Virus genome (UHGV): UHGV-0166527
Direction: 5' to 3' (one strand)
Source of the DNA: a virus
DNA length: 13,507 nucleotides
Shown here one piece after another: positions 50 to 13,507 of the stretch (position 1 is its first letter; every line of letters begins with the position of its first letter). Under the pieces are notes generated by a model that was given only the letters and a program-made list of their open reading frames with translations, was not told the origin of the DNA and did not search any database. The translations under genes were made by a program, and so were the position numbers.

Positions 50-2794
50 TCAAATCGCGTTCAGGTCTTTCTTATTCAACCATGCTTCCAGAGCGGCAAC
101 ACTGTGTGTAATTTCTTCGTGTGGGAGGGGGGCAGATAATGGTTGCTGCTCCAGTTGCGCGCATAGCTGGCTGGCGCTACGCATTCCCAGACTCGCGCAG
201 CTGCTTTTTAGCTGGTGCGCGGCACGTTTAATTTTTTCGCCGTCCTGCCTGGCGCGGGCTGCGTCTATTTCATCGAGAAGTGGCAGGGCATGTTGTTTAA
301 ATAATGTCAGCCATTCGCGAATACTCTCCGTCCCCATTAACTGAGCATCTTCATGGAGTTGCGATACATCCAGCGATTGATCTTTATTGGTTTGCAGTTG
401 GAGATAGTGCGCCAGTAACTGACCGAGCACTTCACGCGGCACTGGTTTAGGGATAATCCCGCGAAAGAGCGAACTGGTTCGCTGGCGCAGCGTTTCGTCG
501 ATGACATGGGCGCTAAAGCCAATCAAAACCAGCGACGGATATTGCTGTACCAGTTGTCGGGCAAGGGTAATGCCGTCGATATCCGGCAGATCAAAATCCA
601 CCAGTGCGGCAGCAAATGGTTCACTATTTTGCAGCGTTTCTATCGCCTGCGCGGCATTGCCAACAGCCACGACCTGCGCACCACTGGTGTTTAGCATCTC
701 AACGGTAATTCGCTGGGTTAGCGGGTTATCTTCAATTAACAGCAAACGTAAACCGTCCAGACGTACCGCCTGATTGACTGTTTTTGGCACGGGGGCAGTG
801 GCAACACGTAACGGCAAGCGTAAACAAAAACAGCTTCCAGCCCCCGGCGTGCTGGTGGCGCTCAGTTCGCCGCCCATCGCCTGAGCCAGACTGCTACTGA
901 TAGTCAGCCCCAGCCCGGTGCCGCCGCGTTTGCCGCTTACCTGAACAAATGGCTGGAATATTTCTGCCAGTTTCGCGGGATCAATACCGCAGCCGCTGTC
1001 TTCCACTTCGACCAACCATTGCTCGCCATCAGTGCGACTGCGCAGGACGATCTGCCCCTCGTCAGTGAAACGCACGGCGTTGCTCAACAAGTTGGTAATA
1101 ACCTGGCGAATACGTCGCGGATCGCCCATTAACGCGCTCGGTACATCGTTGGCAATTGCCGTTGCCAGGCGAATCGGGCGACCTTTCACCCGCCCGCTCA
1201 TTAATTGCAGGGTACTTTCCAGCAGCGGGCGTGGTTCAAAGGGTTCATCGCTGACCGAAACATTTTTGCCCCCCGCTTCGATAGCCGAATAATCGAGGAT
1301 ATCGTTAAGGATGGTCAGCAGCGATTCGCCGGAGTCGGTAATTGCCCGCAAATCATCACGCTGGGCGTTAAGTGCGGGGTTATCTGCCAGCAGTTGCGCG
1401 GTGCCGAGAATACCGTACAGCGGTGTGCGGATCTCATGGCTCATTGCCGCCAGAAACGCAGATTTTGCCTGGCTGGCTTTTTCGGCTTCCGCACGAGCCT
1501 GTCGATGTTCTACCACCAGTTCCTGTAATTCAGCCGTGCGCGCTTTTACTTGTGCCGCCAGCTGTTCGCGCTGGCGATTCAGCGCATGAACGCTGCTGCG
1601 AAACGCATCCATCAGCCGCCCGATAGTATCCAGCTCCCGCACGCCAGCGGTTTCCGGGAAAGGGGAGTCGATATCACCGTCCAGCAAGCGTTGCAGCGCC
1701 TGCGTTTGTTCAGCAAGTGGACGTGTGACAGAGCGATAAACCACGCGCCAGAGGATCAGAATCAGTGCGCAAAGTGAAACCATCCCCAGCAATACCAGGC
1801 TGTATTGCCCGCGTGCGCTGGCTTTTTCCAGATGCGCCAGTCCATGTTGATTACGCAGCTCAATGGTGTCGACCAGCTGACTGACTTCGCTACTAAACTG
1901 CGCAAACTGGGCGATGTTATTTTGGGCGAGAGTGTGCAGGTGATTGCTGATTTCACTGTCCTGCTGATACAGCGCCAGCAAATCGCTATATTGGCTAACG
2001 GTAGTTAACGTTGTTGCGACCTGAGCACGAACTCCCGGATCTTCAATGCGTATTTGCCGACGTTGCAGAATTTTCACCGCATTATTGAGCTGCTTTTCCA
2101 GCGTTGGCGCATTTTTCTGGATCTGTTCCAGCCCCAGATTCATCACCATTTGCTGCACCCGCAGAGCACTAAGGCGCAGTTCATTCATCTGGTTAACATA
2201 CTCAAGATCGATATCAATCAGCCTGTCGAGTGCGCTTTCGGCGGCCTGACGCTGATGTTGTTCGATCAAATCGTAAATCCCGGCCTGGGTAGCTCCGGCG
2301 GAGGTGGCCGCATTATTCGCCTGACCTTGCGCCAGGCGTGCGATTTCATCGGCGGCGGCGACTATCTGCTGACTGAGTTGCTGTTGTTGCTGGCGCAGTT
2401 GCAAACGCTGCCCCACCAGCTCCCCTTGCTGACGTAACGAACGGGAGATCTCCTGCTCCTGTTGTTCAATAGCGGTGGTATCAAAACCTTGTTCCCGTAA
2501 TGCTTGCAGCAACGCATTAATCTTCAGGCTTTGTGCGGTGAGCATTCGCCCCTGCGCCTGCCACATCTTTTCGTTATCGGCACTGGTCAGGTTCTGCGCG
2601 GCGAAAAGTTCCCAGGCGCTGGCTTCGCTCAACTGGCGCGCCATATTCATGGTAGGAATCAATGCCTGAGTGTTGTCTTTTTCCACCTGGCTGATAAAGC
2701 GCAGGTTGTACCATCCCACCAGGGTACTGGTCAGGGTTAACAGCGCCATCAGGGCAAAGCCCATCCAGAGCCTTCGGGTCAGGGTTAAATTCAC
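50..2794 (-). CDS. torS: Hybrid sensor histidine kinase TorS (trimethylamine N-oxide two-component sensor), complete 914 aa
   Basis: 914-aa ORF with N-terminal TM segment, HAMP-like region, histidine-kinase H-box (MSHEIRTPL), ATPase motifs (GTGLGL), receiver domain ([10 protein letters not shown]) and C-terminal HPt region; length and N-terminus [19 protein letters not shown] match my recollection of E. coli TorS. Confidence 0.93.
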
Positions 2795-2888: not shown

Positions 2889-3962
2889 TCATTTGTCGAT
2901 TTCAATTTTGTCCCATTCCCGTCCACGGCTGTCCCTATACCGCGCCGCCATTGAATCTGATTTATGCCCGAGAAGACGTTGAGCAAACTTATCGCCAATC
3001 TGGTTCCGGTATAGCCTCGCTGACAGGCTACGCAGTTCATGGAATGTTGGCGGGTTTCCATCAAATGAGAGTCCAGATGCATTTCTCGCCTTTGTAAAAT
3101 ACTTTGATACTGTTTTCGGGGAAAGCGGATCGTGATGCTTTGATGCGATTATAGTTTCACTGCTGCTGGCCTCCCTGCATTTTTGTAGTGTATCAGCCAA
3201 TGAGATATTGAGCGCGTCAATCGTTAGCGTCAGCGGAATGGCGAGCTTAGCCCCTGTTTTACTCTGCTCAATGTGAAGATGGTTGTCGTTTATGTCTGAC
3301 CATTTCATTCTGCACAAATCGCCCACTCTCTGCCCTGTAACGACAGCCAAATCCATTGCCAGCCTCAGCCAGATTGGGAGAGGTTCGGCTGCATGGTAAA
3401 TCGCGACATACTCATTAGCTGTCAGCCTTGAGCGCCTTACTTCTGACTTTGCTGTGCGGGTTGCTGTTACCGGATTCGTTTCCACATGCCCCTCGGCTAT
3501 TGCCTCACGAAAAACGTCAACAAGGGTTGACCTGATTAATTTTGCGGAAGCTGCTTTACCTTCTGCTACGTAGGTGTTTAGCATTGCTGCCACCTCTTTC
3601 GTTGATATGTCATTGAGCGGTTTGTCCGGCAATTTTCTTCGAATCGCCCTGATTTTGCTGGCGTAGTCGAGTAGAGTTTTCGGTCTGATACCCCTCTCGC
3701 TGAGGATTGTTTCATATCGGTCAAGCCACGCATGAAGAGTGATTGCGTCAGCGCCTTTAATCCTGTCTATCAGTGACTCACGCCTGTTCTCGGATAGCAA
3801 CTCAATATTGGCCTGAATAGCCTCTGAAACTGCTATCCTTCTGTCTCTGCCTAATCCGAACTCTTTACCCGTCCTTGGGTCCCTGTAGCAGTAATATCCA
3901 TTGTTTCTTATATAAAGGTTAGGGGGTAAATCCCGGCGCTCATGACTTCGCCTTCTTCCCAT
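2889..3962 (-). CDS. int: Tyrosine integrase, lambda Int family (357 aa)
   Basis: N-terminus MGRRRSHERRDLPPNLYIRNNGYYCYRDPRTGKEFGLGRDRRIA and C-terminus RGREWDKIEI closely match recalled lambda Int; catalytic motifs TGQRVGDL, HELRSL, LLGHKSD, ARYRD present. Confidence 0.95.
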   Translation of the reverse strand: MGRRRSHERRDLPPNLYIRNNGYYCYRDPRTGKEFGLGRDRRIAVSEAIQANIELLSENRRESLIDRIKGADAITLHAWLDRYETILSERGIRPKTLLDYASKIRAIRRKLPDKPLNDISTKEVAAMLNTYVAEGKAASAKLIRSTLVDVFREAIAEGHVETNPVTATRTAKSEVRRSRLTANEYVAIYHAAEPLPIWLRLAMDLAVVTGQRVGDLCRMKWSDINDNHLHIEQSKTGAKLAIPLTLTIDALNISLADTLQKCREASSSETIIASKHHDPLSPKTVSKYFTKARNASGLSFDGNPPTFHELRSLSARLYRNQIGDKFAQRLLGHKSDSMAARYRDSRGREWDKIEIDK

Positions 3963-4158
3963 TTCTGATCCTCTTCAAAAGGCTACCTGTTACTGGTCGA
4001 TTTAAGTCAACCTTTACCGCTGATTCGTGGAACAGATACTCTCTTCCATCCTTAACCGGAGGAGGGAATATCCTGCATTCGCGCACCCATCGACGAACTG
4101 TTTCAAGGCTTCTTGGGCGTCGCTGGCGAGCGTTCCACTCCTGAAGTGTCAAGTACAT
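3940..4158 (-). CDS. xis: Excisionase Xis (72 aa), 3' end overlapping int start
   Basis: MYLTLQEWNARQRRPRSLETVRRWVRECRIFPPPVKDGREYLFHESAVKVDLNRPVTG.LLKRIRNGKKAKS is essentially lambda Xis; ATG at 4156-4158 chosen over the longer in-frame ORF start at 4248. Confidence 0.9.
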   Translation of the reverse strand: MYLTLQEWNARQRRPRSLETVRRWVRECRIFPPPVKDGREYLFHESAVKVDLNRPVTGSLLKRIRNGKKAKS

Positions 4159-4170
4159 CGCAAAGTCTCC

Positions 4171-4184
4171 GCAATTACACGCAA
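4171..4184 (-). promoter_or_regulatory. Putative CII-binding site (TTGC-N6-TTGC) of the pI promoter just upstream of the xis ATG
   Basis: Minus-strand sequence TTGCGTGTAATTGC immediately 5' of xis, as in lambda pI; the transcript would start inside xis. Confidence 0.5.
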
Positions 4185-4265
4185 GAAAAAGCCGCATTGA
4201 TGCGGCGATGGTAGGTCTGGATATCATTGAGCAATGAACAGGCCTCATCGAGTGTGAGGCTGTAG

Positions 4266-4610
4266 TTAGTCCTTGCGTAGCTCGCTGATTCTTCTGTAAG
4301 TCTCTGGTGCTTTGTTCCCGTACGTCTTCATTTCAGACTTCAACAGAGCAACGAGGGAATCCCATTCGTTGAGGATTCCTTTGAATGCCGGAACGCGCTT
4401 TGCAACCTTGTCGAATGAATCTCTGATTTCTGGAATCTGCTCAACAAGTGCAACGCATCGCCGGAAATCGGCTACGTCATGTGGAGCGCCGAAGTGATGA
4501 CCATAGATATTATTTTTCAGTCCACATGCGATTGAGGCAAGAGTTGCGCTACTGATGCCGACATCGCCAGTCGATTGCCATTTCAAAACCTTCATAGCCA
4601 AATCTGACAT
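4266..4610 (-). CDS. Hypothetical phage protein (114 aa)
   Basis: ORF with ATG at 4608-4610 preceded by GGAGA 6 nt upstream; no recognised family. Confidence 0.6.
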   Translation of the reverse strand: MSDLAMKVLKWQSTGDVGISSATLASIACGLKNNIYGHHFGAPHDVADFRRCVALVEQIPEIRDSFDKVAKRVPAFKGILNEWDSLVALLKSEMKTYGNKAPETYRRISELRKD

Positions 4611-4621
4611 TTCTTGTCTCC

Positions 4622-4648
4622 ATAAAACAAAACTCGCTGTAGCGAGTT
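4622..4648 (-). terminator. Intrinsic terminator (minus strand): stem AACTCGC / loop TACA / GCGAGTT followed by TTGTTTTAT
   Basis: 7-bp perfect stem and U-rich tract read on the minus strand; the U-tract abuts the RBS of the 114-aa gene. Confidence 0.55.
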
Positions 4649-4768
4649 CAGATAAAAGAAATCCCCGCGAGTGCGAGGATTGTTATTGTCTTTGCTTTGT
4701 GCATTTGTCGCACTTTCGGCACCATCCAGATAGGCACATCCGTCCGCAATTAACACATATAGGCCACA

Positions 4769-5047
4769 TCATTTTTCCTCTTTTGGTTTATGAATCTGAA
4801 TGGTCATGCCGCTTTGAGTGGTGGCTACAACGACAGAACCAGGCTGAAGGCTGTTAAGATTGAATGCTTCGTAAAACGAATCCAATGCCAGTGCTTTTTT
4901 ATTCTTTCGGTTCCACCAACGCCATCCCTTGCTACAGGCTACACTGACAATCCACTGTCCACTCCTGTAAGCCATATAAAACCAGATGAGCAAAACCTGA
5001 AGGAAGGCTATCCAGTCAATAATCGTATATTTCGCGAAGGAGTCCAT
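4769..5047 (-). CDS. Small predicted membrane protein (92 aa; hydrophobic N-terminal segments, tryptophan-rich juxtamembrane region, soluble C-terminus)
   Basis: ATG at 5045-5047 with AGGAGG 7 nt upstream and TGATG overlap with the upstream gene stop; hydrophobic stretches YTIIDWIAFLQVLLIWFYMAY and WIVSVA. Confidence 0.55.
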   Translation of the reverse strand: MDSFAKYTIIDWIAFLQVLLIWFYMAYRSGQWIVSVACSKGWRWWNRKNKKALALDSFYEAFNLNSLQPGSVVVATTQSGMTIQIHKPKEEK

Positions 5048-5259
5048 CACTTTACCTCCTGCGCCGCTTTGATGATTGCAGCCAGGCAATTCTTGCACGG
5101 AACCTGAAATGAACCCTGCTCAATGCTCAACAGTGCATGCTGAGCATCCTGAAAAAGCCAGTCTGAAAATTGTGGTACATGTCCGCACCACGTCTCTATT
5201 TCATGCTTTGCAAGCTTGGCGCCGTCACGATAGTCATATTTGATAATGTGCTTACTCAC
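5047..5259 (-). CDS. Hypothetical small protein (70 aa), GTG start
   Basis: GTG at 5257-5259 preceded by AGGAGGTGAAGCC; N-terminus SKHIIKYDY is paralogous to the next gene upstream. Confidence 0.5.
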   Translation of the reverse strand: MSKHIIKYDYRDGAKLAKHEIETWCGHVPQFSDWLFQDAQHALLSIEQGSFQVPCKNCLAAIIKAAQEVK

Positions 5260-5273
5260 GGCTTCACCTCCTG

Positions 5274-5531
5274 CTACTGTGATGCTGGCTGATTATCGTT
5301 AACGTATGCATCAGGAAGCAGATACTGCTTAGCCATCCAGTTATCACACTTCATTTCAGTAATGTATTTTGGCAGTTCACCGTGCTGACAATTGAATAGC
5401 CACCACTGGTCACCCATGCTTTGAGGAATAGCGCGCTCATACGTGATACCAAGCTCGCGAATTACTTCTTGCGGGTGCCTGCTTTCTCCTGAATAAGCAG
5501 CACCCATACAGTCATAGCGTAAGTGTTTCAC
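5274..5531 (-). CDS. Hypothetical small protein (86 aa), GTG start
   Basis: GTG at 5529-5531 preceded by AGGAGGTGAAGCC; N-terminus KHLRYDC; the ORF-track 116-aa version (start 5624) is an in-frame extension lacking an RBS. Confidence 0.5.
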   Translation of the reverse strand: MKHLRYDCMGAAYSGESRHPQEVIRELGITYERAIPQSMGDQWWLFNCQHGELPKYITEMKCDNWMAKQYLLPDAYVNDNQPASQ

Positions 5532-5535
5532 GGCT

Positions 5536-5652
5536 TCACCTCCTGCACAGGCTGAAAATAAACGATGTGATTGCCAAATCCTGAATTGCTGTAATTGCCA
5601 GCATCCAGCCATAAATGCTTTCACTGAAATGCCATGCTAGTGCTGTAATCAC
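5536..5652 (-). CDS. Possible small hydrophobic peptide (38 aa, VITALAWHFSESIYGWMLAITAIQDLAITSFIFSLCRR), GTG start overlapping the stop of the 405-aa gene
   Basis: Hand translation; GTG at 5650-5652 within GTGA overlap, preceded by AGGAGGTTAAGCC; not in the ORF track because it is under 60 aa. Confidence 0.35.
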   Translation of the reverse strand: MITALAWHFSESIYGWMLAITAIQDLAITSFIFSLCRR

Positions 5653-6866
5653 GGCTTAACCTCCTGAGGCGGTTCTGGTAGAGACATCCAGTGAGTTACG
5701 TCATCCAAGATATTTCCTGATAAATACGTGAAAGCTCTATATTTTTTGTAATCAATTGGATTTACAACCCAGTTCCAATATGCGGCCACGATTTCACCTT
5801 GACTAAATGCCAGTAACATTTTGGTGTCTTCCGGCATTCGATCACTACAGCTTATCCAACCATCCGGAGTTACCGGAGAATTGCCATTTACCAAGTCAGC
5901 TCGAACATATAGCGTGTCATCATGGTGCTGATTGTGGCTGCACCACGTTAATTCGCTTAACTCGCCATCTTCTGGCCATACTCCAGCTGTTTGCAGCCAG
6001 ATATGGGCTGGCGCATCTTGGCAAGGTGTATTAACTGGCAACTTGTAAGTTTGGCTTACAGGTTGGCTACCCTGAAGCATGGCAGCGCGGCAGGCATACT
6101 CAACGCCCTTAACTGCATCTGCGCAGTAGTTATAGCGATTGCATTCCACTAATTTCCGTTTGAGTTTTTCAATTGCCTGCGCGACATCAGCCTGTATTAC
6201 AGGAACTGGCGGAACGGCTGTTTGCTCTCGAACGTCATTAGTCGCTATCGGTTCTGCTGCCAACTGGCTGGCATATTTGTTAATGGTAACGATAAGCTCT
6301 TGCTCAGCCTCATCCAGACAATCACCGATACCTCGCCTGTCACCGTCAAAATCATCGAAATCGGCACGAATCTTGGCAACCTTCAGGATTGCGGACAACA
6401 CCTCACTAGGAATTACCGGATAGTTGGTTGATGTTTCCGCGATTTCCCGAAAATTATTGGTTGACGAATTCTTGTTTTCCCGAAAGTTTCCGGACTGAAG
6501 CATGGCGGCGCGGCAGGCGTTCCAGCCATCTGCGTAACAATCTCTGTGTGTCTTGAAATATGTCACCGCCCTTGGTACATCGTTTACGTCTATTTCATCC
6601 GGCACAACCGGCGCAGGTGAGTCAGCATAAACAGGAATAACGTCCGGTTGCTCTTTATTGCTTTCATCCGTTAAAGCCAAGAATAATTTTCCGGCCGGAT
6701 GTTTGAAAATATAAGCAACTGGTTCTGCTTCCAGCGATGCCAGCGCCAACTTGAACGCCTGAAGCTCAATGGCACTGTTGGTATCCAGTCCAAACGGTAA
6801 TTCATCACGATTGGCTTCGTATTCAGCGATAGTTTGCTTCAGCCATTCTTTGGTTAGTTCAGCCAT
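5649..6866 (-). CDS. Phage early-region protein (405 aa) with an internal duplicated motif (ACRAAMLQ) and a C-terminal region reminiscent of DUF551-type phage domains
   Basis: ATG at 6864-6866 (MAELTKEW) chosen because the upstream ATG at 6917 overlaps the preceding gene and lacks an SD; family assignment is from memory and uncertain. Confidence 0.6.
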   Translation of the reverse strand: MAELTKEWLKQTIAEYEANRDELPFGLDTNSAIELQAFKLALASLEAEPVAYIFKHPAGKLFLALTDESNKEQPDVIPVYADSPAPVVPDEIDVNDVPRAVTYFKTHRDCYADGWNACRAAMLQSGNFRENKNSSTNNFREIAETSTNYPVIPSEVLSAILKVAKIRADFDDFDGDRRGIGDCLDEAEQELIVTINKYASQLAAEPIATNDVREQTAVPPVPVIQADVAQAIEKLKRKLVECNRYNYCADAVKGVEYACRAAMLQGSQPVSQTYKLPVNTPCQDAPAHIWLQTAGVWPEDGELSELTWCSHNQHHDDTLYVRADLVNGNSPVTPDGWISCSDRMPEDTKMLLAFSQGEIVAAYWNWVVNPIDYKKYRAFTYLSGNILDDVTHWMSLPEPPQEVKP

Positions 6867-6870
6867 ATCC

Positions 6871-7323
6871 CTAATTCCCCTTGATGCTGACTTTGACGCC
6901 AACCTTGCGAATCTCATCGGCGCATCTGTTCACGATACTCCGGTGAAACTCACAAAAAATTTTCGCCGACTGCGGCCCTAATGGGTGAACATCGTGCGCA
7001 CGCGGCAGTACAACCTCCCGCGCCTCCATGTCAGCAATCCGCTTGTCTTTGGCTTCCAGCTCATCCAGCAGCGCCAGCACGGTAGCTGGATTGGCTGCGG
7101 CGATGAATTCAGCATTGGCCTGCTGTTCTATTTGGAAATCTTCATCGAAACCGCTTTCAGGATGCGCTCCTTCAATTCTGCAAATGGGAATATATCCAGC
7201 AGCCTCGCGATGAATTAGCGCATCATCACCATCAAATCGGCCCTTTCCATATTCGAGCGACCACTCGCCACACGTTGCTTTTTCTGCCTTAGCACGCAGT
7301 GCCTGATAGTCAATCTTGCTCAC
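6871..7323 (-). CDS. Hypothetical phage protein (150 aa), possibly Ead/Ea22-like; GTG start
   Basis: GTG at 7321-7323 preceded by AAAGGAGG 6 nt upstream; N-terminus MSKIDYQALRAKAEKATCGEW resembles recalled Ead/Ea22-like annotations. Confidence 0.55.
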   Translation of the reverse strand: MSKIDYQALRAKAEKATCGEWSLEYGKGRFDGDDALIHREAAGYIPICRIEGAHPESGFDEDFQIEQQANAEFIAAANPATVLALLDELEAKDKRIADMEAREVVLPRAHDVHPLGPQSAKIFCEFHRSIVNRCADEIRKVGVKVSIKGN

Positions 7324-8477: not shown

Positions 8478-8861
8478 CTAGAAGGGAATTGAATCGTCGT
8501 ATTCAGGATGATTTTGATGATTGCTACTTTGCTGCTGTTGGCTGTTTCCTGAAGTTGCAAATCCAATCTTTGCATTCAGTAATTCAAGATTGATTGATTG
8601 ACCATTTTGCCCCTGATAAACATCAACCCTGATGTTTTCTCCGGTAATTTCAACAATGCCACCTTCAACAAGAACACTACGGTAGTAATCCGCTTGCGCT
8701 CCCGGCTTGGCAAATACAACGGCGCTGTAGTTTGTCCATTCTTTCTTTTTTGTCTGGCGATCGTAATACTGAACGCCAGCACGGATGTTGAATCCGATAT
8801 TTTCCCCGGCCTGAAACTCTCTTGCGGGCTTGTTTAGTCTTACAGTAATCGAATGTGCCAT
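8478..8861 (-). CDS. ssb: Single-stranded DNA-binding protein, phage SSB-like (127 aa)
   Basis: OB-fold-like core and C-terminal acidic tail ending DDSIPF (compare E. coli SSB DDDIPF); ATG at 8859-8861 overlaps erf stop (TAATG). Confidence 0.75.
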   Translation of the reverse strand: MAHSITVRLNKPAREFQAGENIGFNIRAGVQYYDRQTKKKEWTNYSAVVFAKPGAQADYYRSVLVEGGIVEITGENIRVDVYQGQNGQSINLELLNAKIGFATSGNSQQQQSSNHQNHPEYDDSIPF

Positions 8862-11594: not shown

Positions 11595-11921
11595 TCAAAT
11601 AAGTGGTTTGCTGCCTAATTTCATTTTCTGGCGACCAACACAAGTCACACCCATTTCACTGCGTGGCTTGCTGTACCATGTGCGCTGATTCTTGCGTTCA
11701 ATACGTTGCAGGTTGCTTTCAATCTGTTCGTGGTATTCAGCCAGCACCGTAAGGTCTATCGGATTCAGTGCGCTTTCTACTCGTGATTTCGGTTTGCGAT
11801 TCAGCGAGAGAATAGGGCGGTTAACTGGCTTTGCGCTTACCCCAACCAACAGGGGATTTGCTGCTTTCCATTGAGCCTGTTTCTCTGCGCGACGTTCGCG
11901 GCGGCGTGTTTGTGCATCCAT
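11595..11921 (-). CDS. N: Antitermination protein N (lambda-type, 108 aa)
   Basis: MDAQTRRRERRAEKQAQWKAANPLLVGVSAKPVNRPILSLNRKPKSRVESALNPIDLTVLAEYH... matches recalled lambda N including the arginine-rich motif; AGGAGA SD upstream of ATG 11919-11921. Confidence 0.9.
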   Translation of the reverse strand: MDAQTRRRERRAEKQAQWKAANPLLVGVSAKPVNRPILSLNRKPKSRVESALNPIDLTVLAEYHEQIESNLQRIERKNQRTWYSKPRSEMGVTCVGRQKMKLGSKPLI

Positions 11922-12078: not shown

Positions 12079-12109
12079 GCCCTTCTTCAGGGCTTAATTT
12101 TTAAGAGCC
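12079..12109 (-). promoter_or_regulatory. nutL site: boxA-like (GGCTCTTAA, + 12101-12109) and boxB hairpin (GCCCTGAAGAAGGGC, + 12079-12093)
   Basis: boxB is identical to recalled lambda nutL boxB when read on the minus strand; boxA differs from CGCTCTTAA by one base. Confidence 0.75.

Positions 12110-12272: not shown

Positions 12273-13507
<1,235 letters not shown>

Follow-up and report, generated by a model that had tools for sequence, protein, structure and literature searches.

The window analysed here, a 13,507-nucleotide stretch of DNA from UHGV virus genome UHGV-0166527, holds a lambdoid prophage beside torS (50..2794, minus strand), with nearly all of the phage genes on the minus strand. 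One of these, a short reading frame in the early-left operon, had been proposed from the bare sequence to encode a small membrane protein. Is it a genuine gene, what sort of protein does it specify, when would that protein be made and what might it do for the phage?

Identification of a DUF4752 family gene

The open reading frame (ORF) at 4769..5047 on the minus strand (table 1) comprises 92 codons and a stop, and its conceptual translation, MDSFAKYTIIDWIAFLQVLLIWFYMAYRSGQWIVSVACSKGWRWWNRKNKKALALDSFYEAFNLNSLQPGSVVVATTQSGMTIQIHKPKEEK, is exactly the 92-residue product that the original prediction described. The tryptophan- and lysine/arginine-rich stretch that had been pointed out lies at residues 39-51 (SKGWRWWNRKNKK), with six lysine or arginine residues and no acidic ones. 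A Pfam scan of the protein returned DUF4752 (PF15944) as the sole match, with no exclusion, defence, holin or lysis family. The match (E = 3.7e-35, 120.3 bits; gathering cut-off 27 bits) aligns residues 8-91 with positions 2-84 of the 84-position profile. Among the PHROGs, the protein matched phrog_667, which has no assigned function (E = 1.2e-37). This catalogued family had gone unnoticed in the original prediction. NCBI and UniRef already list an identical 92-residue protein, named ‘DUF4752 family protein’ and seen on 67 contigs; the gene is an annotated member of a catalogued family, this copy of it was already known, and the finding is in that respect an ordinary one.

Each defining feature of the family that was tested, namely score, architecture and early accessory location, was found, and by these measures the predicted protein is a DUF4752 member. 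The architecture, taken from two family alignments (A1 and A2) and per-column statistics, comprises about 80-95 residues with a hydrophobic helix, a [WY]x[YF][IM]xx[KR][AST]GxW belt and a basic stretch, followed in the C-terminal part by an A[LVI][ND]x[FL][YF][DE]AF helix and a PG...T..G.xIxI hairpin; alignment A2 is too divergent for pattern design. Because of the Pfam score, the presence of an intact gene in 79 of the 80 IMG/VR copies and the mostly synonymous differences between alleles (nine synonymous and three non-synonymous relative to GER2), we regard 4769..5047 as almost certainly a real gene of the DUF4752 family, with a chance ORF ruled out.

The start site is well defined. The minus strand reads GCAGGAGGTAAAGTGATGGAC at this point, with a Shine-Dalgarno (SD) sequence, AGGAGG, graded strong and placed 7 nt 5' of the ATG. 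The TGA stop codon of the upstream 70-aa ORF (5047..5259) shares a single base, the A, with this ATG. Such a TGATG overlap was the ground on which translational coupling to the upstream gene had been suggested; it is present here, and a stop/ATG overlap is kept at this position in all 81 loci examined (65 TGATG and 16 TAATG). An extended 109-aa product starting from a GTG at 5098 was considered and rejected: it would overlap the conserved upstream ORF, the SD fits the ATG at 5047, and the N-termini of family members align at M1. Rfam gave no RNA match within the gene or close to it. Frameshifted alleles are found in two deposited genomes, at different homopolymers (T4 to T3 in Stx2-86 and A6 to A7 in GER2), which suggests that the gene is dispensable, although these frameshifts could be sequencing errors.

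Table 1. Features in and around the DUF4752 family gene, with window positions.
Feature	Position	Strand	Evidence and remarks
DUF4752 family gene	4769..5047	-	Pfam, phrog_667, hydropathy, family alignment and AF2; predicted single-pass inner-membrane protein
Ribosome-binding site and boundary sequence GCAGGAGGTAAAGTGATG	5047..5065	-	SD and stop/start overlap, from the sequence; the same in HK106, Stx2-86, GER2 and 80 IMG/VR loci
Upstream 70-aa ORF	5047..5259	-	phrog_4090 (no function assigned), E = 4.8e-43; coupled to the DUF4752 gene
29-aa Cys-rich micro-ORF MMWPICVNCGRMCLSGWCRKCDKCTKQRQ	4683..4772	-	ATG overlaps the DUF4752 stop codon (ATGA); own SD, GAGGA
Two tandem intrinsic-terminator-like hairpins with T-rich tails	4681-4660, 4649-4630	-	Terminator scan; directly 3' of the micro-ORF
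114-aa ORF	4266..4610	-	phrog_1229 (no function assigned), E = 5.7e-51; between the terminators and xis
Lambda-type N gene	11598..11921	-	N36 Pfam match; downstream of the nutL boxB
nutL boxB, exact match to lambda GCCCTGAAGAAGGGC	12079..12093	-	Pattern search, 1 found against 0.04 expected; start of the N-antiterminated pL operon
cI	12674..13306	-	Peptidase_S24 and HTH

Distribution of the family and its module boundaries

Using tblastn, the gene was found in 57 phage records. Copies with 94-98% identity are carried by HK106 (gp31), IME10, ST104 (ORF7), mEp043, mEp213 and many Stx1 and Stx2 phages, while homologues in SPN1S-like Salmonella phages share 30% identity. Counting the gene alone, 549 of 5,426 complete E. 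coli genomes are positive, with at most three copies per genome; a larger count of 2,068 genomes also takes in matches to the flanks. The family is narrow, since an exhaustive HMM search across 1.84 billion representatives yielded only 46 proteins at E<=0.001. A scan of genome contigs for taxonomic range yielded only two loci. A literature search found no mention of DUF4752, PF15944 or phrog_667, and the literature on the exo-xis region and on small membrane proteins of lambdoid phages was likewise silent on the 92-residue protein.

The gene appears as a module with a fixed 5' edge. The 15-20 nt before its start (GCAGGAGGTnAAnTGATG, encoding ...QEVK and a stop codon) are common to loci with unrelated upstream genes. 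Among the 81 loci, the preceding gene is of the DUF551 type, encoding 71-411 residues, in 70; in eight it is the 70-aa gene seen here, and in two it encodes a 98-aa zinc-ribbon protein. As judged from these comparisons, the conserved start junction is a typical lambdoid module boundary and also the source of the SD. At the other end, the 92-aa allele (ending ...KPKEEK) is followed by the 29-aa micro-ORF in all 44 copies, and the 94-aa allele (...KPKEEGRG, 35 cases) by another gene. The micro-ORF is annotated as HK106 gp30 and has relatives of 64-76% identity in unrelated phages.

Distant homologues, at 18-30% identity, still have this architecture, and without exception they are found in the early accessory regions of lambdoid, epsilon15-like and Mu-like phages. 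Some occupy the nin region, with replication genes on one side and NinB/NinX on the other, one of them directly after a DUF551 gene; that of SPN1S is in the early-right operon; and those of Mu-like phages are located between Gam and GemA, where they overlap the gemA start. We considered whether DUF551 might be an obligatory partner and rejected this: the association is frequent (70 of the 81 close loci, together with loci L005 and L006), yet no DUF551 match was found upstream in the Mu-like phages, in SPN1S or in loci L095 and L096.

Predicted membrane topology and structure

The Kyte-Doolittle profile of the protein, computed with a 19-residue window, reaches its maximum of 1.78 at residues 8-26, where the threshold for a transmembrane (TM) segment is about 1.6; values of >=1.4 were obtained for 28 of the 34 family members. 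The Wimley-White octanol sum of the hydrophobic segment is -12 to -13 kcal/mol, while a crude sum on the Hessa biological scale, taken without position terms, is slightly positive and marginal at +2.8 kcal/mol. To these values can be added the column statistics for 33 homologues, drawn from a 34-member family alignment in which identity falls to about 18%. Positions 12-27 are almost never charged, and residues 9-27 lack lysine and arginine in nearly all 33 sequences, with D11, at the N-terminal edge, the only recurrent charge; in the protein itself, D11 and Q17 sit within the hydrophobic segment. The end of the segment is marked by a set of conserved residues: aromatic residues occupy positions 22 and 24 in 31-32 of the 33 homologues, 68% of sequences have lysine or arginine at position 28, a small residue comes next at 29, and 30 of the 33 have tryptophan at position 32. 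Positions 33-38 are hydrophobic across the family. Lysine and arginine then account for 44-79% of residues at most positions of block 39-51, while the N-terminal flank of family members has none or one.

Taken together, these features make it very likely that the 92-residue protein is membrane-anchored. A single-pass, N-out/C-in orientation is predicted by the positive-inside rule, because of the one-sided charge bias. The best reading of the gene product is still the small membrane protein originally proposed: a segment at 9-27 that is almost free of charge is followed by a K/R-rich block, hydropathy and charge pattern alike predict a TM helix, AlphaFold2 (AF2) models a helix through residues 4-45, and no homology to a structural protein was found. 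The original prediction had also spoken of hydrophobic N-terminal segments in the plural. One stretch of membrane-spanning length, 9-27, is present, but the second is no more than a 7-residue patch at 32-38. This patch follows the conserved K/R28 and is unaccounted for by a simple single-span model.

Two other kinds of exported protein were considered and set aside. For a cleavable signal peptide, the n-region has no net positive charge and the 19-residue h-region leads directly into the basic cluster; for a lipoprotein, C38 is not conserved and lies outside any lipobox.

Modelled with the family alignment, the protein forms a continuous helix from residue 4 to 45, with block-mean pLDDT of 88-89 over residues 11-30; the pTM of the full-length model is low, at 0.32. 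The C-terminal 44 residues modelled alone gave a pLDDT of 92, with a helix at 50-61 and a β-hairpin formed by 72-76 and 82-86. The soluble C-terminus of the original prediction can accordingly be drawn as a small cytoplasmic helix and β-hairpin domain spanning residues 50-86 in the model. A two-stranded domain this small probably needs oligomerisation or a partner.

Searches for remote relatives with a known structure gave little. With PDB sequences as the target, profile searches gave no significant match for the full-length protein, and hence no relative with a solved structure; for the C-terminal domain, the best matches were YidC (E = 0.25) and STOPP/NfeD (E = 0.29), neither significant. 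Foldseek searches of the PDB with the full-length and C-terminal models gave no match at E<1, and a search of BFVD with the full-length model returned family members only. MADS-box cores (SRF, MEF2 and MCM1) recur among the top Foldseek rows of both searches, at E values of 1.7-8, TM scores of 0.18-0.40 and rmsd of about 6 Å or more, and these are not significant.

Three assignments of the C-terminal domain were rejected. For an AbrB/MazE-like swapped-hairpin domain (SpoVT/AbrB, MazE_antitoxin, PF04014), which had been considered from the pattern ‘L..i.PGd.v.v.t..G..i.i’, PF04014 was matched in two of 31 domains, with a best E value of 0.1. Its beta-beta-alpha-beta-beta half-barrel differs from the one helix and one hairpin that AF2 gives, and no AbrB or MazE protein was among the top 50 Foldseek matches. 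Membership of NfeD/STOPP-like or YidC-like families was likewise rejected at the non-significant E values of 0.25-0.29. PADLOC gave no match at E<=0.1 for the 92-residue protein, NCBIfam gave none, and PHROG gave no holin or lysis match; the position of the gene in the early-left operon is also remote from any lysis gene.

Genome context and expected expression

In the direction of minus-strand transcription, the identifiable prophage features come in the order cI, nutL boxB, N, the Nmad5 gene, cIII, Kil, Erf, Abc2, an Ead/Ea22-like gene, a gene for a 422-aa DUF551 protein, Xis and Int. The DUF4752 gene is about 7 kb downstream of nutL, in the exo-xis region. Its assignment to a non-essential part of the early-left operon is borne out by the exact lambda nutL boxB and N gene upstream and by the cIII, Kil, Erf, Abc2, Ea22 and DUF551 genes that lie between. 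Its placement at the distal end of that operon does not hold, since the 29-aa ORF, two hairpins, the 114-aa ORF, xis and int still follow on the same strand. Since the phage already carries a Kil of its own, the DUF4752 gene is not its Kil analogue.

A consensus scan of positions 3900-5700 found no sigma-70-like promoter, although a weak internal promoter, and with it some expression in the lysogen, could escape such a scan. For this reason, expression of the DUF4752 gene should require pL and N, in other words lytic growth, infection or induction. The terminator scan found five candidates in the region where 1.4 were expected, and the RNA of the hairpin region folds with -24.8 kcal/mol (z = -4.9). 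By analogy with established lambda biology, we infer that N-modified transcription would read through both hairpins.

Proposed role and alternative explanations

We propose that the DUF4752 gene would be transcribed from pL under N antitermination, some 7 kb past nutL, with its translation coupled to that of the upstream gene by the conserved SD and stop/start boundary. Its product would be a bitopic inner-membrane protein with a tail of about eight residues in the periplasm and one TM helix (core approx. 9-27), the cytoplasmic end of which would carry the conserved aromatic/Lys/Trp belt W22-Y24-K/R28-W32. A strongly basic juxtamembrane helix would then lie on the inner leaflet, ahead of a 40-residue cytoplasmic domain of helix and β-hairpin. 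In lytic growth or upon induction, the protein would bind a host or phage target via the conserved TM-end motif, the C-terminal mini-domain or both, and would act at the cytoplasmic side of the inner membrane. It would thus be a dispensable host-modulating or competition factor and not a structural, lysis or lysogen-maintenance protein. We have moderate confidence in this account as a whole, with its early-lytic timing and its place of action; what the protein targets and what it brings about, we purely infer.

Other roles can be set against this proposal. Superinfection exclusion, which the original prediction had suggested alongside host takeover, or competition between phages more generally, would have the inner-membrane protein block DNA entry or the development of other phages, in the manner of T4 Imm, P22 SieA or HK97 gp15. 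A small, predicted inner-membrane protein encoded in a non-essential mosaic region would suit such a role, as would the patchy occurrence among prophages (549 of 5,426 E. coli genomes), and T4 Imm, an exclusion protein that is the product of an early lytic gene, provides a precedent for exclusion from that stage. However, the lysogen is the state in which exclusion matters most for a temperate phage, and a gene that is buried in the cI-repressed pL operon and has no promoter-like site to itself is expected to be silent there. Only about eight residues would reach the periplasm, neither PADLOC nor Pfam gave an exclusion-family match, and the ORF coupled to cI (12276..12677) is a better-placed candidate for expression in the lysogen. 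Because the gene lacks a promoter-like site of its own and the predicted periplasmic part is minimal, classical lysogen-expressed exclusion is less likely than the role of an early-lytic modulator; overall, we consider an exclusion function unlikely. The protein could instead tether phage nucleic acid or replication and recombination complexes to the membrane, with the basic helix and a dimeric C-terminal domain binding DNA as in phi29 p16.7. Such a tether would make sense of the very basic segment 39-51 found across the family, of the layout from basic stretch to helix to β-hairpin, of the MADS-box DNA-binding cores that recur in both Foldseek searches and of the replication and recombination neighbours (Erf, Abc2, the nin region, Gam and GemA). 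Yet those structural matches are not significant, a positive-inside signal with affinity for anionic lipids accounts for the basic block just as well, the C-terminal domain has an acidic helix (D56 and E60), and no known DNA-binding family was matched, which leaves this a very improbable reading.

A more basic challenge to the proposed inner-membrane protein is that it might not be inserted in the membrane at all. The hydrophobic helix could form the buried core of an oligomer, as a coiled coil or helical bundle, in a soluble cytoplasmic regulator. This would accommodate D11 and Q17 within the segment, the positive value of the simple Hessa sum and the AF2 model, which has a single very long helix rather than a compact arrangement of TM segment and domain, and a low pTM. 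Against it, 19 consecutive positions are essentially uncharged in 33 divergent sequences, and the aromatic residues and lysine at one end, the one-sided K/R cluster and the strongly negative Wimley-White sum form the classical signature of a signal-anchor TM segment. We therefore hold a soluble protein to be quite unlikely.

Returning to the membrane-anchored, early-lytic factor that we favour, a broader and bolder version can be put forward tentatively, as a rather doubtful idea. DUF4752 proteins would constitute an overlooked class of early membrane-anchored effectors of lambdoid, P22-like, epsilon15-like and Mu-like phages, whose TM-end motif and helix-hairpin domain bind a host inner-membrane machine (for example the divisome, FtsH/HflKC or a membrane-bound defence effector). 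As such effectors, they might partner the product of the gene most often found just before their own, which is DUF551-type in 70 of the 81 close loci and recurs beside a homologue of 25% identity, or the coupled 29-aa Cys-rich peptide.

For specialists, one more copy of a catalogued domain, and one more small hypothetical membrane protein of the exo-xis region, will come as no surprise. About 10% of complete E. coli genomes and many Stx-converting phages nevertheless carry DUF4752; with its strongly conserved architecture and motifs and its place in the early operons of three temperate phage lineages, the family is a fair target for functional screens. What the present analysis contributes is a topology model, a list of conserved motifs for mutagenesis and the finding that the gene sits within a conserved boundary sequence for translational coupling. 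Should the protein indeed modulate a host membrane process or a defence during induction, it would be a new small lambdoid effector and could bear on the induction of Stx prophages.

Comparison with known systems

The protein described here matches the profile over its full length. Its close homologues, HK106 gp31, ST104 ORF7 and the copies in Stx phages, are 94-98% identical to it and have the same start-codon boundary, with no substantive difference. In loci such as those of HK106 and Dewey, the gene is on the early-left strand upstream of xis and int, as it is here, whereas Stx2-86 and GER2 share the start junction and have other downstream genes.

The exo-xis genes of lambda and Stx phages (orf60a, orf61, orf63, orf73, ea22 and ea8.5) occupy the same compartment, from the recombination genes to xis, and are likewise pL-transcribed and non-essential. 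The proteins that they encode have no sequence relationship to DUF4752, and to our knowledge none of them is a membrane protein. [quoted passage not shown] DUF4752 lies outside the set of genes covered in that study (PMC4195576).

In its predicted overall layout, DUF4752 resembles the short NfeD/STOPP proteins, the membrane-anchored partners of SPFH/stomatin, which likewise combine an N-terminal TM region with a small, β-rich cytoplasmic domain. The profile of the C-terminal domain aligns with the last hairpin of the STOPP structure 3wwv, although not significantly (E = 0.29). Unlike NfeD, however, DUF4752 is predicted to have a helix and a hairpin and no OB fold, Pfam NfeD is not matched, and no SPFH gene is nearby.

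A parallel in size class and predicted architecture is offered by three phage proteins with which DUF4752 shares no detectable sequence or fold similarity. The lysis protein E of phiX174 inhibits MraY, Gp56 of the Bacillus phage SPO1 blocks the divisome, and p16.7 of phi29 is a membrane-anchored DNA binder; Gp56 and p16.7 are expressed early. All three are of about 90-130 residues, with a short external N-terminal tail, an N-terminal TM helix and a basic or functional cytoplasmic part. By analogy, the presence of conserved residues in the predicted TM helix of DUF4752 and in those of E, Gp56 and p16.7 suggests that these helices make specific contacts within the membrane.

A probable micro-protein gene downstream of the DUF4752 gene

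The stop codon of the DUF4752 gene overlaps the start of a short cysteine-rich open reading frame (ATGA), which has a Shine-Dalgarno sequence of its own and whose 3' end abuts the first of two terminator-like hairpins (table). This micro-ORF is the next gene in all 44 copies of the 92-aa allele of DUF4752, the form present in the window. HK106 (where it is gp30) and a small number of further phages are the only ones in which it carries an annotation; unannotated relatives with 64–76% identity were found in phages C1, KFS-SE2, ST1UNAM and ZCEC08, for which DUF4752 was not among the matches listed. We conclude that the ORF probably encodes a genuine micro-protein that has been overlooked so far. 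The product, MMWPICVNCGRMCLSGWCRKCDKCTKQRQ, is zinc ribbon-like in appearance.

The hairpin pair separates the micro-ORF from a 114-aa ORF and lies within the early-left transcription unit. RNA folding of this region gave a z-score of −4.9. Presumably the hairpins are overridden by N antitermination and, without N, would limit read-through towards xis/int.

Features of the window and of homologue loci
Feature	Position	Strand	Source or detail
Tandem intrinsic-terminator-like hairpins (two), each with a T-rich tail	4630..4681	-	Terminator scan and RNA fold
Micro-ORF, 29 aa, six Cys	4683..4772	-	ORF list
Conserved boundary sequence	5047..5070	-	Locus comparison; similar junctions at 5259..5275 and 5649..5670
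422-aa protein, C-terminal DUF551 domain	5649..6917	-	
ORF between Erf and Abc2	8478..8861	-	ORF list
Nmad5 (nucleotide modification associated domain 5) protein, 227 aa	10960..11643	-	E=1.2e-69
134-aa ORF	12276..12677	-	Start codon overlaps cI stop (ATGA)
Frameshifted DUF4752, Stx2-converting phage 86	L011 1501-1772		
Frameshifted DUF4752, phage GER2	L012 1501-1774		
DUF4752 homologues, Mu-like phages	L008 3286-3561; L098 272-550; L099 2501-2782		

Module junctions and the upstream neighbour

On the 5' side, the Shine-Dalgarno sequence of the DUF4752 gene is provided by a conserved boundary sequence, GCAGGAGGTnAAnTGATG, which also codes for the C-terminal ...QEVK* of upstream genes that are otherwise unrelated to each other. 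The 70-aa ORF immediately upstream is itself preceded by a similar junction, GCAGGAGGT, and the DUF551 protein of the window ends in the same PEPPQEVKP. The boundary sequence looks like a recombination linker joining mosaic modules.

A DUF551-type protein, of very variable length (71–411 aa), is the upstream neighbour of DUF4752 in 70 of 81 close loci, and a gene of this type again adjoins a DUF4752 homologue of 25% identity, located in a nin region. The window's own DUF551 protein contains internal repeats with the motif '...W/YNACRAAMLQ...PVSQ(T/R)YKLP'.

Other genes of the window

The Nmad5 gene lies immediately 3' of N, within the pL operon, and is unusual as an early gene in a lambda-like phage. 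The ORF between Erf and Abc2 yielded no Pfam match at E<=0.001; its product has the appearance of an OB-fold ssDNA-binding protein, and its last residues, ...DDSIPF, are similar to the acidic tail at the C-terminus of bacterial SSB.

Since the 134-aa ORF sits 3' of cI, in the rex position, the lysogen probably expresses it. As a candidate for an exclusion or conversion factor expressed in the lysogen, it is better than the DUF4752 gene. No Pfam family matches its product, whose N-terminus is signal peptide-like in appearance.

DUF4752 copies in other phages

The DUF4752 gene is frameshifted near codon 23 in Stx2-converting phage 86 (T4 to T3) and in the N-K-K codons in GER2 (A6 to A7), different homopolymer runs in these two Stx-type phages; two-piece tblastn matches were also obtained from other Stx phages. 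Either the gene is a dispensable pseudogene in these phages, or the shifts are errors of sequencing. Mu-like phages carry the DUF4752 homologue in their semi-essential early region, where it overlaps the start of gemA, a fixed position unlike its lambdoid contexts.
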